The notes under the pieces were generated by a model. It was not told the DNA's origin and searched no databases. It saw only the letters and a list, made by a program, of their open reading frames with translations. Positions 26,181 to 63,523 of a stretch of DNA of 64,000 bases are shown in pieces. The position numbers were made by a program, and so were the translations under genes. Numbering within the stretch: position 1 is the first letter of the stretch; each line of letters starts with the position of its first letter. Source of the DNA: an uncultured Pseudomonadota bacterium (GTDB lineage Bacteria; Pseudomonadota; Alphaproteobacteria; RF32; CAG-239); the NCBI GenBank assembly GCA_902763535.1, contig CACWSG010000001.1, positions 128,261-192,260 of the forward strand, given 5' to 3'.

Positions 26181-27008
26181 CTATTTATAATCAAATCCAT
26201 CAATAGTTACTTTGGTAGTATAAAGCACAAAACATTTGCCGGGATTATCCCCGTTAACAATCATATCTTTATGCACCTGATTTTTACGTGTTCCGGTACT
26301 CAACCCCAATTCCGGCACATCAACCAACAACCCTTCCAATGAGACAACATCACCTTTTACCAACATACTTAATGCTCTGTTGATGTTTTCGGTTGCCGGA
26401 ATAGGATGATAATTGTTCAGTTCATCATCTTTGATGTAAGGATTACATTTTTCATAATTTTCCTTACTCTGTTGAAAATCTTTTTCATCTTGAAAAAACG
26501 ACATAAATGATGTCTTATATTTTACACCTTTGCACAAAACACTTCCCATCCTTTCTTCATGCTTAAAATCAAACATTTCAAACACTTGCGGCTCTGCCAT
26601 TTTTCCAATTACAATAAAAATATCGCGCGGCACTAAATTGATATAATTTCCTTGTGCTTGCCAACGATAAATTTTGTTCAGCAGACCATCATAATTATCA
26701 ACTATTCCCACCCTTCCTGTAACTTTATAAGCAACTTTTGGCTCAAGTCTATATCGTTTGCCATTGCGAGTTATTTCAATATCCGACACATTGACATTTT
26801 CAAAAAAATCTTGTGTTGATATTTTCTGATTCGATTGTGCTTTTTCCCCGATTACCTGAGGATAAACCAATCTTTTCCAGTACTGCGGATAAAAAAATAT
26901 CCACACAATCAAAAGGGCGCATAAAATCTTTAACAACTTCAACCTACTCTGCCGTTTACCCTCTTCCAATCTGTTTTGTTTAATTCTTTTGCGCCACAAT
27001 TTATGCAT
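26181..27008 (-). CDS. Hypothetical membrane-anchored protein
   Basis: 275-aa ORF with a basic N-terminus and one TM ('ILCALLIVWIFFY'). No recognised motif. Confidence 0.55.
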   Translation of the reverse strand: MHKLWRKRIKQNRLEEGKRQSRLKLLKILCALLIVWIFFYPQYWKRLVYPQVIGEKAQSNQKISTQDFFENVNVSDIEITRNGKRYRLEPKVAYKVTGRVGIVDNYDGLLNKIYRWQAQGNYINLVPRDIFIVIGKMAEPQVFEMFDFKHEERMGSVLCKGVKYKTSFMSFFQDEKDFQQSKENYEKCNPYIKDDELNNYHPIPATENINRALSMLVKGDVVSLEGLLVDVPELGLSTGTRKNQVHKDMIVNGDNPGKCFVLYTTKVTIDGFDYK

Positions 27009-27123
27009 TATTTCAACCTTTGTTTATATAAAACGCTCTAAAGATTCTATTATAATACCAACAAAAAACGCTGCTCACAACAAAACTTGTTTGCAGCGTT
27101 ATCATTAAATTATATTATAACAG

Positions 27124-27708
27124 CTAAGCACGACGAGCAACGCGCTCTTTCTTAATCCGTTCACCTACAACCGCATCATTTTTTTTGGGAAATTTTACGG
27201 TCATTTTAACATTGCCATCTTCGTGCATAGTTTTTTTAATACCTTCAGCTTTGGCGATAATTTCATCAGCACTGGCTTGTTTTGCTTTCAAAGGTTTGAT
27301 TTTTTCCTCTTCAGCAGTTTTTTTATAAAACTTTATAAAATCAACATCCATAGAACACTGAAAAGAATCTTTGCCCCTCTTCACATCACCATAGTTATAA
27401 CCGTATTTATCATTTCTCATATAACGATACAAGTGCGTCATTGATCTATTGTTTTTGTCATAATATGTTACAGCTTCATCTGAAACCGTAACTTTCTTGG
27501 TCTTTGGAAAAAACAAAAAAGCATTTGCATTTTTACCGCCAATAACAACCGGCAACAAAAATTTATTTCCATTCGCCGCTTCTCCCTTATAGAGTACACA
27601 TTTTACCTTGGCTTGTGCACCGGCCGAATACAAACTCTTAGATTTTATTTTTTTCAAATCTTTAAGGGCATATTCTCCTTTGGGAATGTCATAATTCAAA
27701 ATTTCCAT
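27124..27708 (-). CDS. Hypothetical protein (Lys-rich, 194 aa)
   Basis: Good promoter (TTGACA-16-TATCAT) and SD 'aggagga' upstream. Terminator hairpin 'aacgctgc...gcagcgtt' downstream. Confidence 0.6.
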   Translation of the reverse strand: MEILNYDIPKGEYALKDLKKIKSKSLYSAGAQAKVKCVLYKGEAANGNKFLLPVVIGGKNANAFLFFPKTKKVTVSDEAVTYYDKNNRSMTHLYRYMRNDKYGYNYGDVKRGKDSFQCSMDVDFIKFYKKTAEEEKIKPLKAKQASADEIIAKAEGIKKTMHEDGNVKMTVKFPKKNDAVVGERIKKERVARRA

Positions 27709-27795
27709 AATTATCTCCTCCTAAATCAAAACTAACTTATGATAGCACAAACCGATAAAATGTCAATTGTTAAACTTTTCTATGCTGTTTGTAAC

Positions 27796-27842
27796 AAAAA
27801 AAAGCCGCCCGCTCTCTCTTTTTTTGAGTCGAAGCGGACGGC
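27796..27842 (-). terminator. Orphan Rho-independent terminator (minus strand) with no upstream CDS on that strand
   Basis: Stem GCCGTCCGCT/AGCGGGCGGC (minus-strand sense) followed by T8. The nearest upstream minus-strand CDS is about 1.9 kb away (29758). Confidence 0.6.
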
Positions 27843-27859
27843 GATTAAAAAATTGATTT

Positions 27860-28430
27860 TTTTGCCACCTAACAGATTCGAACGATCTGGTTTGTGGCTT
27901 TTGCCCACGCGCGGTCAATGGATGCCGGGCGATTTGCGAGCGATTTGCTCATTGTGTCCTGTGGCTTTTACTTACTTCCCCAAACCACATGTGGTTAGGA
28001 AGTGCCGGGCTTAGGACGAGCATTTTTTCTTGCGCTCCGCTATCCGAGTATCGCATTTTATGTAGCGACCTGATATGCGGATGGAGCGCGGCGGCGGATG
28101 TTTATTTTTTGAACTGCGATGCTGCCGAAGCACCGGAGCTCTTATTTTTGGGCGTCATGGCGGCTTTTTTTGTTTTTTATATTTATTTACACTACCTCCG
28201 CTTTTATTCAAAACCCGTAATTCCATTTGGGCTTCATGACGGCGGAACGCCAGTTTTATGTTACCTTGACTAGATGGGTGTTCTCTGCTTCATGTTTTTT
28301 TATTTTTTTTCGATTTTGTTATCCCGAGGCCGTAGCACGTGCCGCTCTTTATAGCGAAATGCCGGTGGCGCGGGTGATGAATTTGTTTAGACGACTAGGA
28401 CTTATCATTCCGTGGTCTGATCTCTGATTT
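27860..28430 (-). other. GC-elevated, highly structured non-coding block: candidate large ncRNA and/or nest of palindromic-repeat modules
   Basis: There is no credible ORF: three short overlapping ORFs in three different frames have implausible peptides. Strong helices occur at 27974-28003, at 28032-28089, and between 28151-28159 and 28235-28243. Modules 'CGGATGG..GCGGAT..AACTGCGATGCTG..ACCGGAGC..CGCCAGTTTT' (28078-28257) are co-linear with the 63366-63523 repeat. An orphan terminator lies immediately downstream on the minus strand. Confidence 0.45.
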
Positions 28431-28832
28431 TCATGTTTCGTGTGTTTCGGCGTCAATATATTAGATTACTTTACCTTGAAATACACTAACTAATTAGGCG
28501 ATCTTTCTTTCATGACCCTTACATGATTAAACGGTTAAACAAAAGATTTATTTCCCTTAAAGCAACTATCACTCAATATCGGAGCTCAAGGTGCATTATT
28601 TTAATTATATCTTTGTAATTGGTTTGTAAGAAAGTTTATACGCTTTTTCGGAACACAAGTCAAGACAAAAAATACAAAATTTCCGCAAAATATTATAATA
28701 TATTGATTTACAACAAATAAATTTTAAAACATAAACCTAATAAACCTTATTAAAGACGATTTATTGCAAAAATGATTGACAAAAAAAATATTTTTTGCTA
28801 CTCTGCCTACATAAAACTAAAAATTTTACATT

Positions 28833-29558
28833 ATGAAAAAATTATTCTTATTCGCGCTGTTAGTATTGAGCGCACAGGTCATTAACGCTCAGGATTCTTT
28901 GAGCATCAAAAAAAACAAGTTCAGAATAACACAGTCGGTGTCTCTTGCTATTCTGTATGGTAACGACAGCGACAAAGAAACAGAAACTGACTATAATAAT
29001 ACTTCTGCTGATGGAGCTAATTTGGGCGATGTTGCCGACAACATCGATGCCAAAATTGGTGCAAATTTGGGAATCAACATCGAATATTCCCTGAAATTTA
29101 TTCCGGGGAAATTATCCGATGGCATCTTCAAAGACAATCCTTTCGGATTTGCCATTGACCTTGGTTTGATTTTGGCAGCTGATAAACAGAGTGAGTATGG
29201 CTTTACTTTTGACGGCCTGCTCAAAGTCGGTATTGAAACCGGATATGACCATTCGATGGGTTTGGGATTTGATTTCCTGTTCGGAACCGGCAAATCCCCC
29301 GGATTCATCTATTTCTTTGATGAGGAAACAACCAACAATGAGCCCATTCCCTACACCGAGTGGTGTTTCAAGAATGGTTTCCAATTTTGGGTGCGTTCCG
29401 GACTGATAAAGCAGTTGTTACCTAATTCGACAACCAGTATATTTGTCCGATATGTTTATAGTCAAGAACCCAAGGACGCCATATCTGATGAGAATGTGTT
29501 CTTATTTTGGCAAGAAGAAGCCTTGCAAATAGGCCTACTCATCAGTTTCAAATTCTAA
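28833..29558 (+). CDS. Outer-membrane beta-barrel protein (small porin/OmpA-like barrel family)
   Basis: Signal peptide 'LLVLSAQVINAQ', alternating amphipathic strands, and C-terminal 'GLLISFKF' with terminal Phe. Confidence 0.7.
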   Translation: MKKLFLFALLVLSAQVINAQDSLSIKKNKFRITQSVSLAILYGNDSDKETETDYNNTSADGANLGDVADNIDAKIGANLGINIEYSLKFIPGKLSDGIFKDNPFGFAIDLGLILAADKQSEYGFTFDGLLKVGIETGYDHSMGLGFDFLFGTGKSPGFIYFFDEETTNNEPIPYTEWCFKNGFQFWVRSGLIKQLLPNSTTSIFVRYVYSQEPKDAISDENVFLFWQEEALQIGLLISFKF

Positions 29559-29562
29559 CTTA

Positions 29563-29587
29563 CCCCCGACTCTGTCGGGGTTTTTTT
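29563..29587 (+). terminator. Rho-independent terminator of 28833..29558
   Basis: 'cccccgactctgtcgggg' hairpin followed by T7. Confidence 0.7.
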
Positions 29588-29591
29588 ATAC

Positions 29592-29626
29592 AAAAAACCG
29601 CCTTGAGTTTTTTACGCTCAAGACGG
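29592..29626 (-). terminator. Terminator module of ACP-like cassette array (copy 1)
   Basis: In minus-strand sense: GCCGTCTTGAG-loop-CTCAAGGCGG followed by T6. It is preceded by the conserved 'TTAACTCCTGTTCGGGCC' box. Confidence 0.6.
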
Positions 29627-29649
29627 CCCGAACAGGAGTTAACGCCCCT

Positions 29650-29722
29650 TTAATCTACATATCCGTTCAATACGGAATAATACAGCTCAATCATGTCTTT
29701 TACGGTGTCGACACAATGATTT
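29650..29722 (-). pseudogene. Possible 3' remnant of a fourth ACP-like cassette gene
   Basis: A short frame '..NHCVDTVKDMIELYYSVLNGYVD*' ends just before the same conserved box (GGGGCGTTAACTCCTGTTCGGGCCGTC) that follows the stop of 30149..30400. It is interrupted upstream by an in-frame stop. Similarity to ACP helix 4 is weak. Confidence 0.3.
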
Positions 29723-29757
29723 TTATTATTCAGATTTTTTAATCAGATGCTGATTTT

Positions 29758-30012
29758 TCAAACATGCAACGCCGCACATGCGTTGTCAACATATTCGCCG
29801 ATGGTTTTCGATTTTGCCATCTTATCCATCGCTTCTTCATGAAACCTTACATCTAATTTTTTCTCTGTGTTGGCAGCGAGTTCTGCAAAATCGAAACTAT
29901 CAACGATACTGCAATCTTCCAATCGCATCTCATCTTTTAAGTCTCGACAAGGGATGCCACTGCCTTTACTGATTGCTGTATAAACAGCCTGTTTTATTTT
30001 TTCTCTTTCCAT
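29758..30012 (-). CDS. Acyl-carrier-protein-like small protein (cassette 1)
   Basis: 84 aa. The ACP layout includes 'VDSFDFAELAANTEKKLDV' (DS-x-D phosphopantetheine-site motif and helix 2) and 'KTIGEYVDNA' (helix 4). It has its own TTGACA-17-TAAGAT promoter. Confidence 0.7.
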   Translation of the reverse strand: MEREKIKQAVYTAISKGSGIPCRDLKDEMRLEDCSIVDSFDFAELAANTEKKLDVRFHEEAMDKMAKSKTIGEYVDNACAALHV

Positions 30013-30058
30013 AATGATAAATTTTTAATTGGTTTGACATAAAAATTGATTTTGCTCT

Positions 30059-30087
30059 ATCTTAATCTTTTTTGACAATTTTGTCAA
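30059..30087 (-). promoter_or_regulatory. Sigma-70-type promoter of ACP-like cassette 1, -35 embedded in palindrome TTGACAAAATTGTCAA
   Basis: In minus-strand sense: TTGACA, 17 nt, TAAGAT. A perfect 6-4-6 inverted repeat overlaps the -35. Confidence 0.55.
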
Positions 30088-30088
30088 G

Positions 30089-30126
30089 AAAAAACCGCCC
30101 CAAGCTTTTAAGCTTTGAGACGGCCC
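30089..30126 (-). terminator. Terminator module of ACP-like cassette array (copy 2)
   Basis: In minus-strand sense: CCGTCTCAAAGCTT-AA-AAGCTTGGGGCGG followed by T6. The conserved box 'TTAACTCCTGTTCGGGCC' lies immediately 5'. Confidence 0.6.
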
Positions 30127-30148
30127 GAACAGGAGTTAAACCCCCTTT

Positions 30149-30400
30149 TTACACATGGAAGCATTCGCATACTTTAGAAACCAACTCTCCGATGGTCTCT
30201 GATTGCATCAAATCCTCCTCTTGGTCTGGTAATTTTACTCCAAGCTCATTTTCTACATCACTTGCAACGCACATAAAATCCAGGCTATCCCATACGGGAA
30301 AATCTGAAAATTTTGTTTCATCACTCAAGTCTTTCAATGAAACATGAGCTGTGCGGCTGATTGCCATGTAGATTGCGTTTCTTAATTGTTCTCTTTCCAT
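30149..30400 (-). CDS. Acyl-carrier-protein-like small protein (cassette 2)
   Basis: 83 aa. 'WDSLDFMCVASDVENELGVKLPDQE' closely follows the ACP 'DSLD..EL....E.E......P..E' pattern, and 'ETIGELVSKV' corresponds to helix 4. It ends 'CECFHV', like cassette 1's 'CAALHV'. Confidence 0.75.
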   Translation of the reverse strand: MEREQLRNAIYMAISRTAHVSLKDLSDETKFSDFPVWDSLDFMCVASDVENELGVKLPDQEEDLMQSETIGELVSKVCECFHV

Positions 30401-30419
30401 AATGATAATGTTTTAATTA

Positions 30420-31124
30420 TTACTCTTCTTTTTTCGCCATTGCCTCCGATTTTTTGTAAGAAATCAGACGCGGCAAATTCCTAGCAAAATCGCCGACTGT
30501 TTTCGAAACCCATTTTTCGTTACCGAAGGTTTCTTCAACATCATCAGCAACAACGGGAGAAAGTTTTAACCCTTCGTTGCACCAGTTGATATCTGCCAGT
30601 TGCAGAACCGGAACAACATCAGCCGAGGTAATGTAGTCCTCAAGCAAATCCCACATGAAAACTTTCTCTGCGGGAATTTTTTTGTACTTGGCGATAGCAT
30701 TCTTAATCGCTTGCCGACACATGGCCTCACCGATAAATTTCTTTTCGAAATTATTTTTTTGATTATAATCGACAGGCAGAGCGAGCGGCGCAAATTCGGG
30801 TTCCTTATTTTCGGCATTTTGGGGAACCTCGTCTGTAGCCACATAGGTTATCAGATCGAAAATCATTCGCTCAAATGAGCAAAGCGTCCATAAACGATAA
30901 TCCCCGATCAAGAAATCACCAACCTCGGATCTGTCGACTTCTCGGGGCAGATCAAACTGTTTTGCGACATCAAGGGCAATGTCCATGATTTTCATGTCGT
31001 CTATACCTAATTCTGTCAGCGGTGTCCAAACCGCATCAGGATCACGCTTTAACAAGCAAAGACGAGCAAGAGAAATGTGCAAGGCTTTGCGCAAATTCTC
31101 ATACGTTGGTTTCAATTTTTCCAT
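30420..31124 (-). CDS. Hypothetical protein with two degenerate ACP-like modules lacking the Ser attachment site
   Basis: 234 aa. The N-terminal module 'LTELGIDDMKIMDIALDVAKQFDLPRE' has D-D-M in place of D-S-L. The C-terminal module ends 'KTVGDFARNL'. Its stop is 19 nt upstream of the cassette-2 start, so co-transcription is likely. Confidence 0.5.
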   Translation of the reverse strand: MEKLKPTYENLRKALHISLARLCLLKRDPDAVWTPLTELGIDDMKIMDIALDVAKQFDLPREVDRSEVGDFLIGDYRLWTLCSFERMIFDLITYVATDEVPQNAENKEPEFAPLALPVDYNQKNNFEKKFIGEAMCRQAIKNAIAKYKKIPAEKVFMWDLLEDYITSADVVPVLQLADINWCNEGLKLSPVVADDVEETFGNEKWVSKTVGDFARNLPRLISYKKSEAMAKKEE

Positions 31125-31167
31125 AATGATAATATTAATTGGTTAACATAAAAATTGATTTTGTTTC

Positions 31168-31196
31168 ATCTAAACTGCTTTTTGCAATTCTGTCAA
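31168..31196 (-). promoter_or_regulatory. Sigma-70-type promoter of 30420..31124
   Basis: In minus-strand sense: TTGACA, 17 nt, TTAGAT. The surrounding roughly 75 nt is near-identical to the cassette-1 upstream region. Confidence 0.5.
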
Positions 31197-31197
31197 G

Positions 31198-31231
31198 AAA
31201 AAACCGCTTCAAGACTATATGCTTAAAGCGG
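31198..31231 (-). terminator. Rho-independent terminator of 31265..31636
   Basis: In minus-strand sense: CCGCTTTAAG-loop-CTTGAAGCGG followed by T6. Confidence 0.6.
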
Positions 31232-57553: not shown

Positions 57554-57677
57554 AAAACTGCGGATAGCGTGCGCAAATAATAAGAAACAGCTTAAAAAGT
57601 ACCGGAGCGTACTTTTGTCGTACGTGAGGACACTTTTTAAGCTGTTTCTGTATTAGTTGCCAGCTAGACGCAGTTTT
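57554..57677. repeat. About 124-nt imperfect palindromic element (CGGATAG family), 3' of pepS-like gene
   Basis: Termini AAAACTGCG/CGCAGTTTT. Stems are 57586-57600/57632-57646 and 57608-12/57620-24. It is roughly 75-80% identical by eye to 63399-63523. Confidence 0.78.
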
Positions 57678-57684
57678 TACAGTT

Positions 57685-63365: not shown

Positions 63366-63523
63366 CTAAAAAGTTCGGATAGTGAGGCGGATAATAAGAA
63401 AACTGCGGATAGCGTGTGTAGATAATAAGAAACTTCCTAAAAAGTGAAGGGAGTGTACTTTAAACGTACATAACCGAACTTTTTAGGAAGCTTCTGTATT
63501 AAATACCAGCTAAACGCAGTTTT
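63366..63523. repeat. Composite palindromic element (CGGATAG family) with duplicated left arm, 3' of 63527..63871
   Basis: The core 63399-63523 is co-linear with 57554-57677. The extra left module 63366-63398, 'AAAAGTTCGGATAGTGAGGCGGATAATAAGAA', repeats the left arm. Stems are 63433-45/63478-90 and 63454-58/63466-70. Confidence 0.78.

Follow-up and report, generated by a model that had tools for sequence, protein, structure and literature searches.

A predicted structured RNA gene with embedded seven-codon reading frames in uncultured rumen and gut Alphaproteobacteria

The intergenic gap at 27709-28832 in a 64,000-nucleotide stretch of contig CACWSG010000001.1 (uncultured Pseudomonadota bacterium, GenBank assembly GCA_902763535.1; the whole stretch is called the window here) is predicted to carry a stand-alone RNA gene transcribed from the minus strand. 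A preliminary description of this DNA had singled out the block at 27796-28460 as a candidate for a dedicated large structured minus-strand RNA that ends at an orphan terminator, and the homologs now lend support to this proposal through conservation, covariation, a conserved promoter and G.U pairs. The block is the G+C-rich structured two-thirds of the minus-strand RNA gene. As judged from the comparison of sequences, the gene is a member of a previously undescribed structured RNA family that has embedded conserved minigenes and a narrow distribution. We consider it highly likely that the locus is a real, selected, structured RNA gene. The fuller statement, that a stand-alone structured RNA carries translated mini open reading frames (mini-ORFs) which gate a trans-acting domain, is one that we favor, taken as a whole, only by a little.

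Locus, relatives and transcription unit

The 1.1-kb gap is flanked by divergent open reading frames (ORFs), one of 194 amino acids (aa) on the minus strand (27124-27708) and one of 241 aa on the plus strand (28833-29558) that bears a signal peptide and is outer-membrane-like. The only ORFs listed within the gap are short overlapping ones on the plus strand. The G+C content is 0.459 in the block, as compared with 0.341 and 0.255 in its flanks and 0.401 in the whole window. When the folding was compared with that of shuffled sequence, the z-score was -4.0 for the minus strand and -2.1 for the plus strand of the window, and -3.3 for the copy in one of the relatives (L001). Thus, composition, ORF list and folding agree with the earlier view of the block as non-coding, GC-elevated and rich in helices.

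Relatives were located through contigs that encode homologs of the 194-aa, 241-aa and 234-aa neighbour proteins. Only two relatives of the 194-aa protein were found in 5.8 billion proteins, and a few more were found for the 241-aa and 234-aa neighbours. The same intergenic element occurs at the syntenic position in contigs of relatives from seven further assemblies. The RNA-bearing loci are L001/L005 (metagenome-assembled genome (MAG) RUG14511), L004, L006, L010, L011, L016-L019, L017 and L022, and together with the window they provide eight distinct sequences (window, L001, L006, L010, L011, L016, L017 and L022), to which the counts below refer. L016, L018 and L019 are the same in sequence, and L019 is from NCBI assembly GCA_017516405.1 ('Alphaproteobacteria bacterium'). 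These relatives, to which the preliminary description had looked for a check, show both conservation and compensatory changes at the homologous loci.

The rumen MAG RUG14511 branches among rumen MAGs labelled Rhodospirillales (PMC6785717, supplement), and the presence of mipZ beside the L006 copy is consistent with Alphaproteobacteria. Since GreA is 95-99% identical and PNP is 85-98% identical among the RNA-bearing genomes, all known members fall in one genus-level clade, and the RNA appears so far to be confined to this clade, whose members are uncultured Alphaproteobacteria of the rumen or gut. Where more distant homologs of the 241-aa protein are encoded (L007-L009 and L012), no such element lies alongside. 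A covariance model built from the 3' domain hit only the nine expected loci (99-127 bits), with a single hit in the window. In an exact-pattern scan of the genome collection RUG14511 was the sole match, and exact-pattern scans of JGI metagenomes and viral contigs gave no match, with patterns that demanded 19-26 exact bases and therefore reach close relatives only; the first genome pattern excluded the L006, L010 and L022 types.

All eight sequences have in common, upstream of the block, UUGUCUUGAC on the -35 side, followed by 17 variable bases and UAUAA(A/G). In the window this element is at 28635-28663 on the minus strand, with a -35 hexamer TTGACT (28663-28658), a 17-nt spacer and a -10 hexamer TATAAA (28640-28635). 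TTGAC and TATAA(A/G) are invariant in all eight sequences while the spacer between them is freely variable, which argues that the element is the promoter of the RNA, of the sigma-70 type. A simple promoter scan overlooked it because the final base of the -10 hexamer is A. Transcription would start near 28627, about 170 nt upstream of the block at 27796-28460, and the boundaries first drawn for the RNA have to be revised, as the conserved promoter adds an AU-rich 5' region with mini-ORFs. On the other hand, the candidate promoter proposed earlier at 28456-28427 could not be upheld: it matches the consensus at 9 of 12 positions only, overlaps a degenerate third copy of the mini-ORF unit, and belongs to a module that most members lack, being found only in the window and, in part, in L010.

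At the other end, the intrinsic terminator already described on the minus strand (27796-27842) was confirmed, with an 11-bp G+C-rich stem, an inner 3-bp stem and then U8. It is kept in all eight sequences, and in L022 its inner stem has changed from CUC/GAG to UUCC/GGAA. On the opposite strand, A.C mismatches would take the place of two U-G pairs that are invariant in the terminator and of several G-U pairs of the hairpin HP-a described below, so the RNA strand is the minus strand. The predicted transcript thus runs from about 28627 to 27796, which is about 830 nt in the window and 590-690 nt in the relatives. The upstream side is less empty than was first thought, as the nearest minus-strand ORF (29758-30012) is about 1.3 kb away and not beyond about 1.9 kb.

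The gene beyond the terminator is a 194/195-aa gene in six of the sequences, a 275-aa gene in L010 and convergent mipZ/parA in L006; the 194-aa gene is absent next to the RNA in both L006 and L010. Between the terminator and the 194-aa gene, outside the RNA, there is a separate minus-strand promoter for that gene (27739-27766, TTGACA-16-TATCAT, 11/12 match), and it is kept in L001, L011, L004 and L022. The RNA therefore has a conserved promoter and a conserved terminator of its own in eight of eight sequences while the downstream neighbour varies, as would be expected for an independent structured RNA gene, and we predict that it is a stand-alone gene on the minus strand.

Hairpins, covariation and exchangeable modules

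The RNA is predicted to form 6-7 hairpins in series (HP-0 and HP-a to HP-f) with A-rich linkers between them. When segments were folded lineage by lineage, hairpins were found at homologous places even where the sequence had been replaced. All features are given in the order of the minus strand. An AU-rich 5' leader with a variable hairpin (28514-28627) has 40-60% identity to the other members, and the optional G+C-rich hairpin module HP-0 (28323-28374) is common to the window and L010 only. The most conserved part of the RNA is the core block UGGCGUUCCGCCGUCA (28237-28252), which is nearly invariant in the eight sequences and can pair with several downstream GCGG/CGCC segments, with predicted partners that shift between runs. 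Because consensus folding of the whole domain gave such run-dependent long-range pairs, only local hairpins are claimed.

The core block is followed by HP-a (28209-28236), which has an 8-bp stem (UGAAGCCC/GGGUUUUG) and a 12-nt loop (AAAUGGAAUUAC) that is nearly constant among members, and by HP-b (28111-28141), a variable hairpin of three sequence types that is predicted in every lineage. HP-c (28032-28089) is a long interrupted hairpin, and HP-d (27947-28021) is an optional long hairpin module that contains ACUUCC..CCACAUGUGG..GGAAGU. HP-e (27903-27941) has a GCYC/GGGC closing helix in all members, with the interior replaced. HP-f (27864-27898) consists of an outer stem GCCAC/GUGGC, an internal loop AAAC/UUAG, an inner stem CAGAU/AUCUG and a loop CGUUCGA. 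Several of these helices had been noticed before. ACTTCC..CCACATGTGG..GGAAGT is present at 27974-28003 and GCGCTCC/ATCCG...CGGAT/GGAGCGC at 28032-28089, and the GGCG-GAA-CGCC hairpin was located at 28241-28251. The long-range pair of GGCGTCATG (28151-59) with CATGACGGC (28235-43) was found at the positions assigned to it, with complementarity that extends to 8 of the 9 positions only.

Compensatory substitutions were counted in three alignments. In HP-a, 97.5% of the cells are paired and both sides have changed in four of the eight pairs, a number reached in 1 of 500 shuffles. In HP-c, where 93.7% of the cells are paired, two double changes occur (U-A to C-G, and C-G to A-U) together with a paired insertion in L006 and L010, and the covariation score was 0.092 versus 0.053 (2 of 500 shuffles as high). 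The 3' domain, which comprises HP-f and the terminator, was aligned in seven sequences and has 97.1% of the cells paired. Both partners have changed in five of its pairs, a number reached in 2 of 500 shuffles. Its covariation score was 0.202 versus 0.081 (0 of 500 shuffles), and only 40-46% of the cells were paired when the partners were slid by 1-3 columns. The outer stem of HP-f is 100% paired, with one pair that is A-U, U-A or G-C among members, and the inner stem has one pair that is A-U, G-C, U-A or G-U. One gap was placed by hand in L022 in the alignment of the 3' domain, and the HP-a and HP-c alignments were padded by hand. The compensatory substitutions thus exceed both the shuffled and the slid controls, in few sequences and with two hand-padded alignments.

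HP-0, HP-b and HP-d are exchangeable or optional modules. HP-d is present in the window, L006, L010 and L022 (with another inner stem in L022) and is missing in L001, L011, L016 and L017, and the distribution of the modules cuts across the relatedness of the genomes. The window and L011 encode 194-aa proteins that are 96% identical and have PNP genes that are 0.89 identical at third codon positions, yet their RNA module types differ and their central RNA segments are only 0.44-0.75 identical. Between L001 and L022, the identity is 0.90 for PNP third positions, 0.60 for the RNA and 48% for the 194-aa proteins. On the other hand, the conserved RNA blocks of the window are 0.78-0.98 identical to those of L001 and L006 (coreA1 is 0.70 identical to that of L010), as compared with only 0.43-0.51 at the third codon positions of the adjacent 241-aa gene.

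The neighbouring genes show the same pattern. In the island at 26181-29558, which is hypervariable and mosaic among L001, L006, L010, L011, L016 and L022, the 241-aa gene has 64-75% aa identity and the 194-aa gene 48-56%, and the genomes differ in whether they carry the 275-aa, the Vut_1 and the 194-aa genes. The distribution of the modules together with the contrasts in identity indicates that this island, with the RNA and the genes for the 241-aa and 194-aa proteins, is hypervariable and undergoes recombination.

Seven-codon reading frames in the 5' third

The AU-rich 5' third of the RNA contains a 24-nt unit, RTG AAR SAR AGR NNN CCN ANY TAG, which would encode the peptide M-K-(E/Q)-R-x-P-x before a UAG stop. 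In the window, mini-ORF 1 (28490-28513, minus strand) reads ATG AAA GAA AGA TCG CCT AAT TAG (MKERSPN*) and mini-ORF 2 (28270-28293, minus strand) reads ATG AAG CAG AGA ACA CCC ATC TAG (MKQRTPI*). A degenerate third unit, MKIRDQTTE* (28405-28434, minus strand), is found in the window only and is absent from the other members. Every member of the family has one or two copies, and the peptides are MKERSPN, MKQRTPI, MKERSPS, MKERVPT, MKERTPS and MKQRTPT. The pattern does not occur anywhere else in the window (0 matches are expected by chance) or in the fetched loci.

The substitutions among the 11 distinct mini-ORFs follow the degeneracy of the genetic code. Two-fold degenerate sites have transitions only (AAA/AAG, GAA/GAG, AGA/AGG and ANY), the four-fold site of the Pro codon has all four bases, codon 5 is free, and the start and the UAG stop are fixed. 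Pairwise codon differences were 89 synonymous to 106 nonsynonymous in frame, and 12 to 210 and 14 to 188 in the two other frames. Since the substitutions obey the code in this manner, the mini-ORFs are probably translated minigenes, and the RNA is probably not purely non-coding. The stop is UAG without exception, while UAG closes just 17 of the 49 long ORFs of the window, so the invariance of UAG is a constraint in its own right. Among those 49 long ORFs the stop codons are TAA in 29, TAG in 17 and TGA in 3.

Other reading frames on the RNA strand have less regular histories. An ORF of 16-19 codons runs over HP-b (28157-28101, MTPKNKSSGASAASQFKK*) and has stayed open in six of the eight sequences, where its indels are in frame and several of its changes synonymous. 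In L016 and L017 it is cut by a CAG>UAG change that preserves a G-U pairing, and homologous bases are read in differing frames between sequence types. No long ORF on the RNA strand is conserved; changes in the frame that begins MAFRRHEAQMELRV... preserve the pairing of HP-a and not the amino acids, and this frame was dismissed as a coding candidate. A helix between CUUUCUU (28628-28634, after the -10 hexamer) and AAGAAAG in codons 2-4 of mini-ORF 1 (28503-28509) was also considered and was dropped from the model, as L022 breaks the pairing. For the same bases, L006 and L010 have a compensating change of C-G to G-C, which also turns Glu into Gln, and the bases after the -10 hexamer are perhaps upstream of the start of transcription. 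In L022 (5890-5950), the most divergent member, a 12-codon ORF, MPRIRDKPFEAF*, stands in place of the second mini-ORF unit. It overlaps a small hairpin with a U-run (AAGCC-CUUUGA-GGCUU-UUUU) that directly precedes the conserved core on its 5' side, and this hairpin and U-run could be an internal attenuator.

Known systems, alternative explanations and neighbouring sequence

No known family accounts for the RNA, which in kind comes closest to the orphan large RNAs and the dual-function small RNAs compared below. Rfam 15 at the gathering score, with models that took in tmRNA (standard and permuted), RNase P, SRP, 6S, ROOL, GOLLD, raiA, OLE, HEARO and riboswitches, gave nothing in the region or in 6 homologous loci, and the sole hit in the window was a tRNA-Leu elsewhere. 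At E<=10 with permissive filters, the copies in the window, L022 and L001 produced noise only (best E 0.057, 0.28 and 0.68), and the noise-level best hits in the window and L001 copies fall on the terminator hairpin. With ARAGORN empty as well, the earlier failure to match the block to tmRNA, RNase P, SRP, 6S or riboswitches has been borne out.

The approach of finding orphan large RNAs in G+C-rich intergenic regions has been described before (PMC6429828, PMC11109978, PMC8723152). Like OLE, GOLLD, ROOL and raiA, the RNA lies in a long intergenic region with outstanding G+C in an A+T-rich genome, is of comparable size (0.6-0.85 kb here), and has its own promoter and terminator, covarying hairpins, conserved loops and linkers, and optional peripheral modules. 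Unlike them, it is limited to a single clade, has hypervariable and mosaic alleles and carries apparently translated mini-ORFs, and it matches none of them in sequence or structure. In the dual-function small RNAs RNAIII/hld, SgrS/SgrT and SR1/SR1P, a small translated ORF and a multi-hairpin regulatory RNA are likewise combined in one transcript. Their ORFs encode peptides of 26-43 residues that work as free products, whereas the ORF here is a tandemly repeated one of 7 codons that ends with UAG in every case.

The mini-ORFs also resemble arrest peptides. In common with TnaC, SecM and ApdA/ApdP, the RNA has a very short conserved ORF with an Arg two residues ahead of a Pro near the presumed pause, conserved identity of the stop codon, and a terminator later on the same transcript. 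However, the motif here is R-x-P-x-stop and not R-A-P-P (RAPP) or R-P-stop (TnaC), the peptide is far shorter, and no consistent regulated downstream ORF is found. The RAPP-type motifs of ApdA/ApdP and the SecM-type motifs have been described (PMC7897499, PMC10951233), and the likeness to RAPP, SecM and TnaC may be taken as a lead only. A 7-codon gene that is followed by structured RNA and an intrinsic terminator is known from mccA. In the microcin C clusters, ribosome occupancy controls the fate of the transcript, the MccA sequences are unconserved except for an obligatory C-terminal Asn, and mccB is adjacent (PMC4231749, PMC6495379). The mini-ORF has the 7 codons of mccA, but its sequence is conserved, its last residue is N, S, I or T in place of the obligatory Asn, and no MccB-like (ThiF/E1-like) domain occurs among the neighbours.

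As to how the RNA may work, we propose that the heptapeptide would act in cis on its own ribosome, either as a regulatory nascent peptide or through a pause at termination. An action in cis is likelier than a free product because the peptide has 7 residues with a conserved K-x-R-x-P core and an invariant stop codon specific for release factor 1 (RF1); a free product is unlikely because the well-known 7-codon genes (mccA) need the C-terminal Asn and mccB, both of which are lacking here. The folding of the downstream structured domain, its stability or its protection from Rho and RNases would then depend on how ribosomes occupy the 5' region, and the domain would act in trans by protein binding or RNA pairing. 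In this exact form, we regard the ribosome-sensing dual-function mechanism as unlikely. A tentative proposal, which we hold to be rather doubtful, is that the RNA represents a new dual-function class in which tandem MK[E/Q]RxPx-UAG minigenes are sensors of ribosome or RF1 state and gate a modular RNA under diversifying selection. Such selection, e.g. conflict with phages or competitors or strain-specific regulation, would lead to swappable modules and to allelic divergence.

Several points weigh against a stand-alone RNA with translated mini-ORFs and a gated structured domain. The start position of the transcript is predicted from the promoter consensus. The covariation is built on few independent events, as there are eight sequences from one genus-level clade, one divergent member, L022, supplies a large share of it, and two of the three alignments counted were hand-padded to suit the structure. 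The long-range pairings of the core (UGGCG/CGCCA and UCCGC/GCGGA) are unstable between predictions. In some pairs (L001/L022) the whole RNA diverges faster than housekeeping synonymous sites, and divergence above that of PNP third positions indicates that much of the sequence is without simple purifying selection. The pairwise synonymous counts in the mini-ORFs are not phylogenetically independent, and no consistent Shine-Dalgarno sequence precedes the mini-ORFs, but only about one third of the long ORFs of the window have one near the first ATG. Finally, no target, partner protein or translation-linked alternative structure was identified.

The locus can also be read in other ways. The RNA could be a leader-peptide transcription attenuator that acts in cis on the downstream genes (194-aa, 275-aa, dCMP deaminase or Vut_1), with the terminator as the attenuator and the mini-ORFs as the sensor. 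Small conserved ORFs ahead of a terminator are the classic layout of such a system, the next downstream gene is on the same strand in seven of the eight sequences, and by inspection three UCCGC-like and three GCGGA-like segments could pair alternatively, also with the 5' arm of the terminator. Yet the RNA in L006 faces convergent mipZ/parA and has no downstream gene on its strand, different genes follow the RNA in different genomes, and the near-consensus TTGACA-16-TATCAT promoter stands between the terminator and the 194-aa gene, which speaks against co-transcription with a regulated gene. Moreover, the mini-ORFs are 440-650 nt from the terminator with six autonomous hairpins intervening, no covarying antiterminator was found, and the UCCGC/GCGGA pairing predictions are unstable. 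We judge attenuation to be quite unlikely. It is improbable, too, that the transcript is a plain mRNA from which tiny peptides are made (the heptapeptides, and possibly the product of the 16-19-codon ORF), as for a microcin C-like precursor, with the hairpins as stabilisers. The coding signature of the mini-ORFs and the in-frame indels of the HP-b ORF, open in 6/8, would suit such an mRNA, and genes of the mccA type, the only well-known functional 7-codon genes, also precede a terminator hairpin (PMC4231749, PMC6495379). The lack of the MccA-type C-terminal Asn and of an adjacent MccB adenylyltransferase speaks against it, as does the absence of any recognisable family within 5 kb of the RNA other than deaminase, transporter and HAD-family hydrolase genes; the loops of HP-a and HP-f and the linkers are conserved far past the needs of a stabiliser, and the longer ORF is truncated in L016/L017 with the pairing kept and has frames that differ between types.

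The order of a promoter, an RNA with repeated units, a terminator and a small protein gene is also that of the type III toxin-antitoxin systems ToxIN, CptIN and TenpIN, which evolve fast. An RNA of such a conflict system, or of another defence system, paired with the family-less 194-aa protein would fit the hypervariability of the locus, where the 194-aa proteins are 48-56% identical and the RNA is 0.60 identical at a PNP identity of 98%. However, the two units are diverged, about 74 nt apart and few, in place of near-identical tandem repeats, and no co-occurring ToxN/CptN/TenpN toxin was found: the 194-aa protein has no PADLOC, Pfam, NCBIfam or PHROG match and no ToxN-like fold, its gene has its own promoter and is missing beside the RNA in two lineages, and the proteins of the window and L011 are 96% identical although the RNA modules of the two differ in type. 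We think this explanation very improbable. The presence or absence of HP-0 and HP-d between close relatives is reminiscent of mobile palindromic elements, and the preliminary description had suggested that the block may be an expanded or nested copy of a palindromic repeat, with part of it co-linear with the one at 63366-63523. No blastn hit was obtained for this co-linearity (word size 7, E<=1), and the local score of 21 is close to the 17.7 +/- 2.5 of shuffles, 38 of 300 of which were as high. The RNA is not similar to either repeat copy (57554-57680 and 63399-63520) and, by blastn and the covariance model, has no second copy in the window or the fetched loci; it is syntenic in all genomes and has a conserved promoter, a conserved terminator and compensatory substitutions. 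The members differ by indels whose lengths are not multiples of three, and they have no long ORF in common. A repeat nest, another mobile repeat or a functionless pseudogene is therefore extremely unlikely. Hardly credible either is a universal RNA so divergent that the models miss it, be it the two-piece tmRNA of Alphaproteobacteria, RNase P RNA or 6S RNA. The host belongs to a group with permuted tmRNA genes, mRNA-like and structured parts are combined, and HP-f with its loop CGUUCGA is superficially like a T-arm. But ARAGORN found no tmRNA, Rfam at E<=10 found nothing beyond noise in three divergent members, there is no CCA-ended acceptor stem, and the covariation of HP-f supports a plain 5-6-bp hairpin and not the T-arm register. 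The tag frame of tmRNA has no start codon, whereas the mini-ORFs open with AUG or GUG; they also lack a hydrophobic degradation-tag ending, and hypervariability would be unexpected between genomes with 98% identical housekeeping proteins.

If the preferred reading, a stand-alone structured RNA with translated mini-ORFs, is right, the family would be of interest in several respects. Large structured bacterial RNAs of orphan function are rare, and each has opened new biochemistry. The tandem 7-codon ORF would be among the smallest conserved genes known, with conservation of the peptide sequence and not of the length alone, and whole hairpins are swapped between genomes with nearly identical housekeeping genes. 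If the mini-ORFs do sense the ribosome or RF1, there would be a new link from translation surveillance to a trans-acting RNA. The case also shows that one window together with metagenomic contigs is enough to recover RNAs specific to a lineage of uncultured Alphaproteobacteria from gut and rumen, and the covariance model now exists as a seed for wider searching.

Among the neighbours, the 194-aa protein has a PHROG match that is non-significant (E 0.021), and no family in Pfam, NCBIfam or PADLOC. Its AlphaFold model (pLDDT 62) has no significant neighbour in the PDB by Foldseek (best E 0.046) and nothing ToxN-like. In residues 29-75 there is a weak local likeness to ribosomal protein L11, in its N-terminal domain (LLPVVIGGKNANAFLFFPKTKK; profile E 0.26), a protein that affects RF1-dependent termination at UAG; this assignment was rejected, as AlphaFold and Foldseek lend it no support. 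RNAduplex comparison of the RNA with the 5' region of the divergent 241-aa gene gave long non-specific duplexes only, at a site that differs in each lineage.

Some further observations concern the surrounding DNA. The A+T-rich segment at 28664-28832 between the divergent promoters (L001 9121-9290) is 88-96% identical among the window, L011 and L001, which exceeds the identity of the adjacent coding DNA, and has an insertion of about 200 nt in L006 and L010; shared regulatory sites may lie within it. The palindromic element mentioned above is about 130 nt long, has two intergenic copies (AAAACTGCGGATAGCGTG...CTTAAAAAGT...ACTTTTTAAG...ACGCAGTTTT) that align with each other at a local score of 116 (shuffles about 17), and is unrelated to the RNA gene. 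At 29582-31224, beyond the 241-aa gene, there are repeated modules with small acyl-carrier-protein-like genes (29758-30012 and 30149-30400). The terminator and promoter segments of these modules are duplicated too and are 77-79% identical, which suggests a local tandem duplication.

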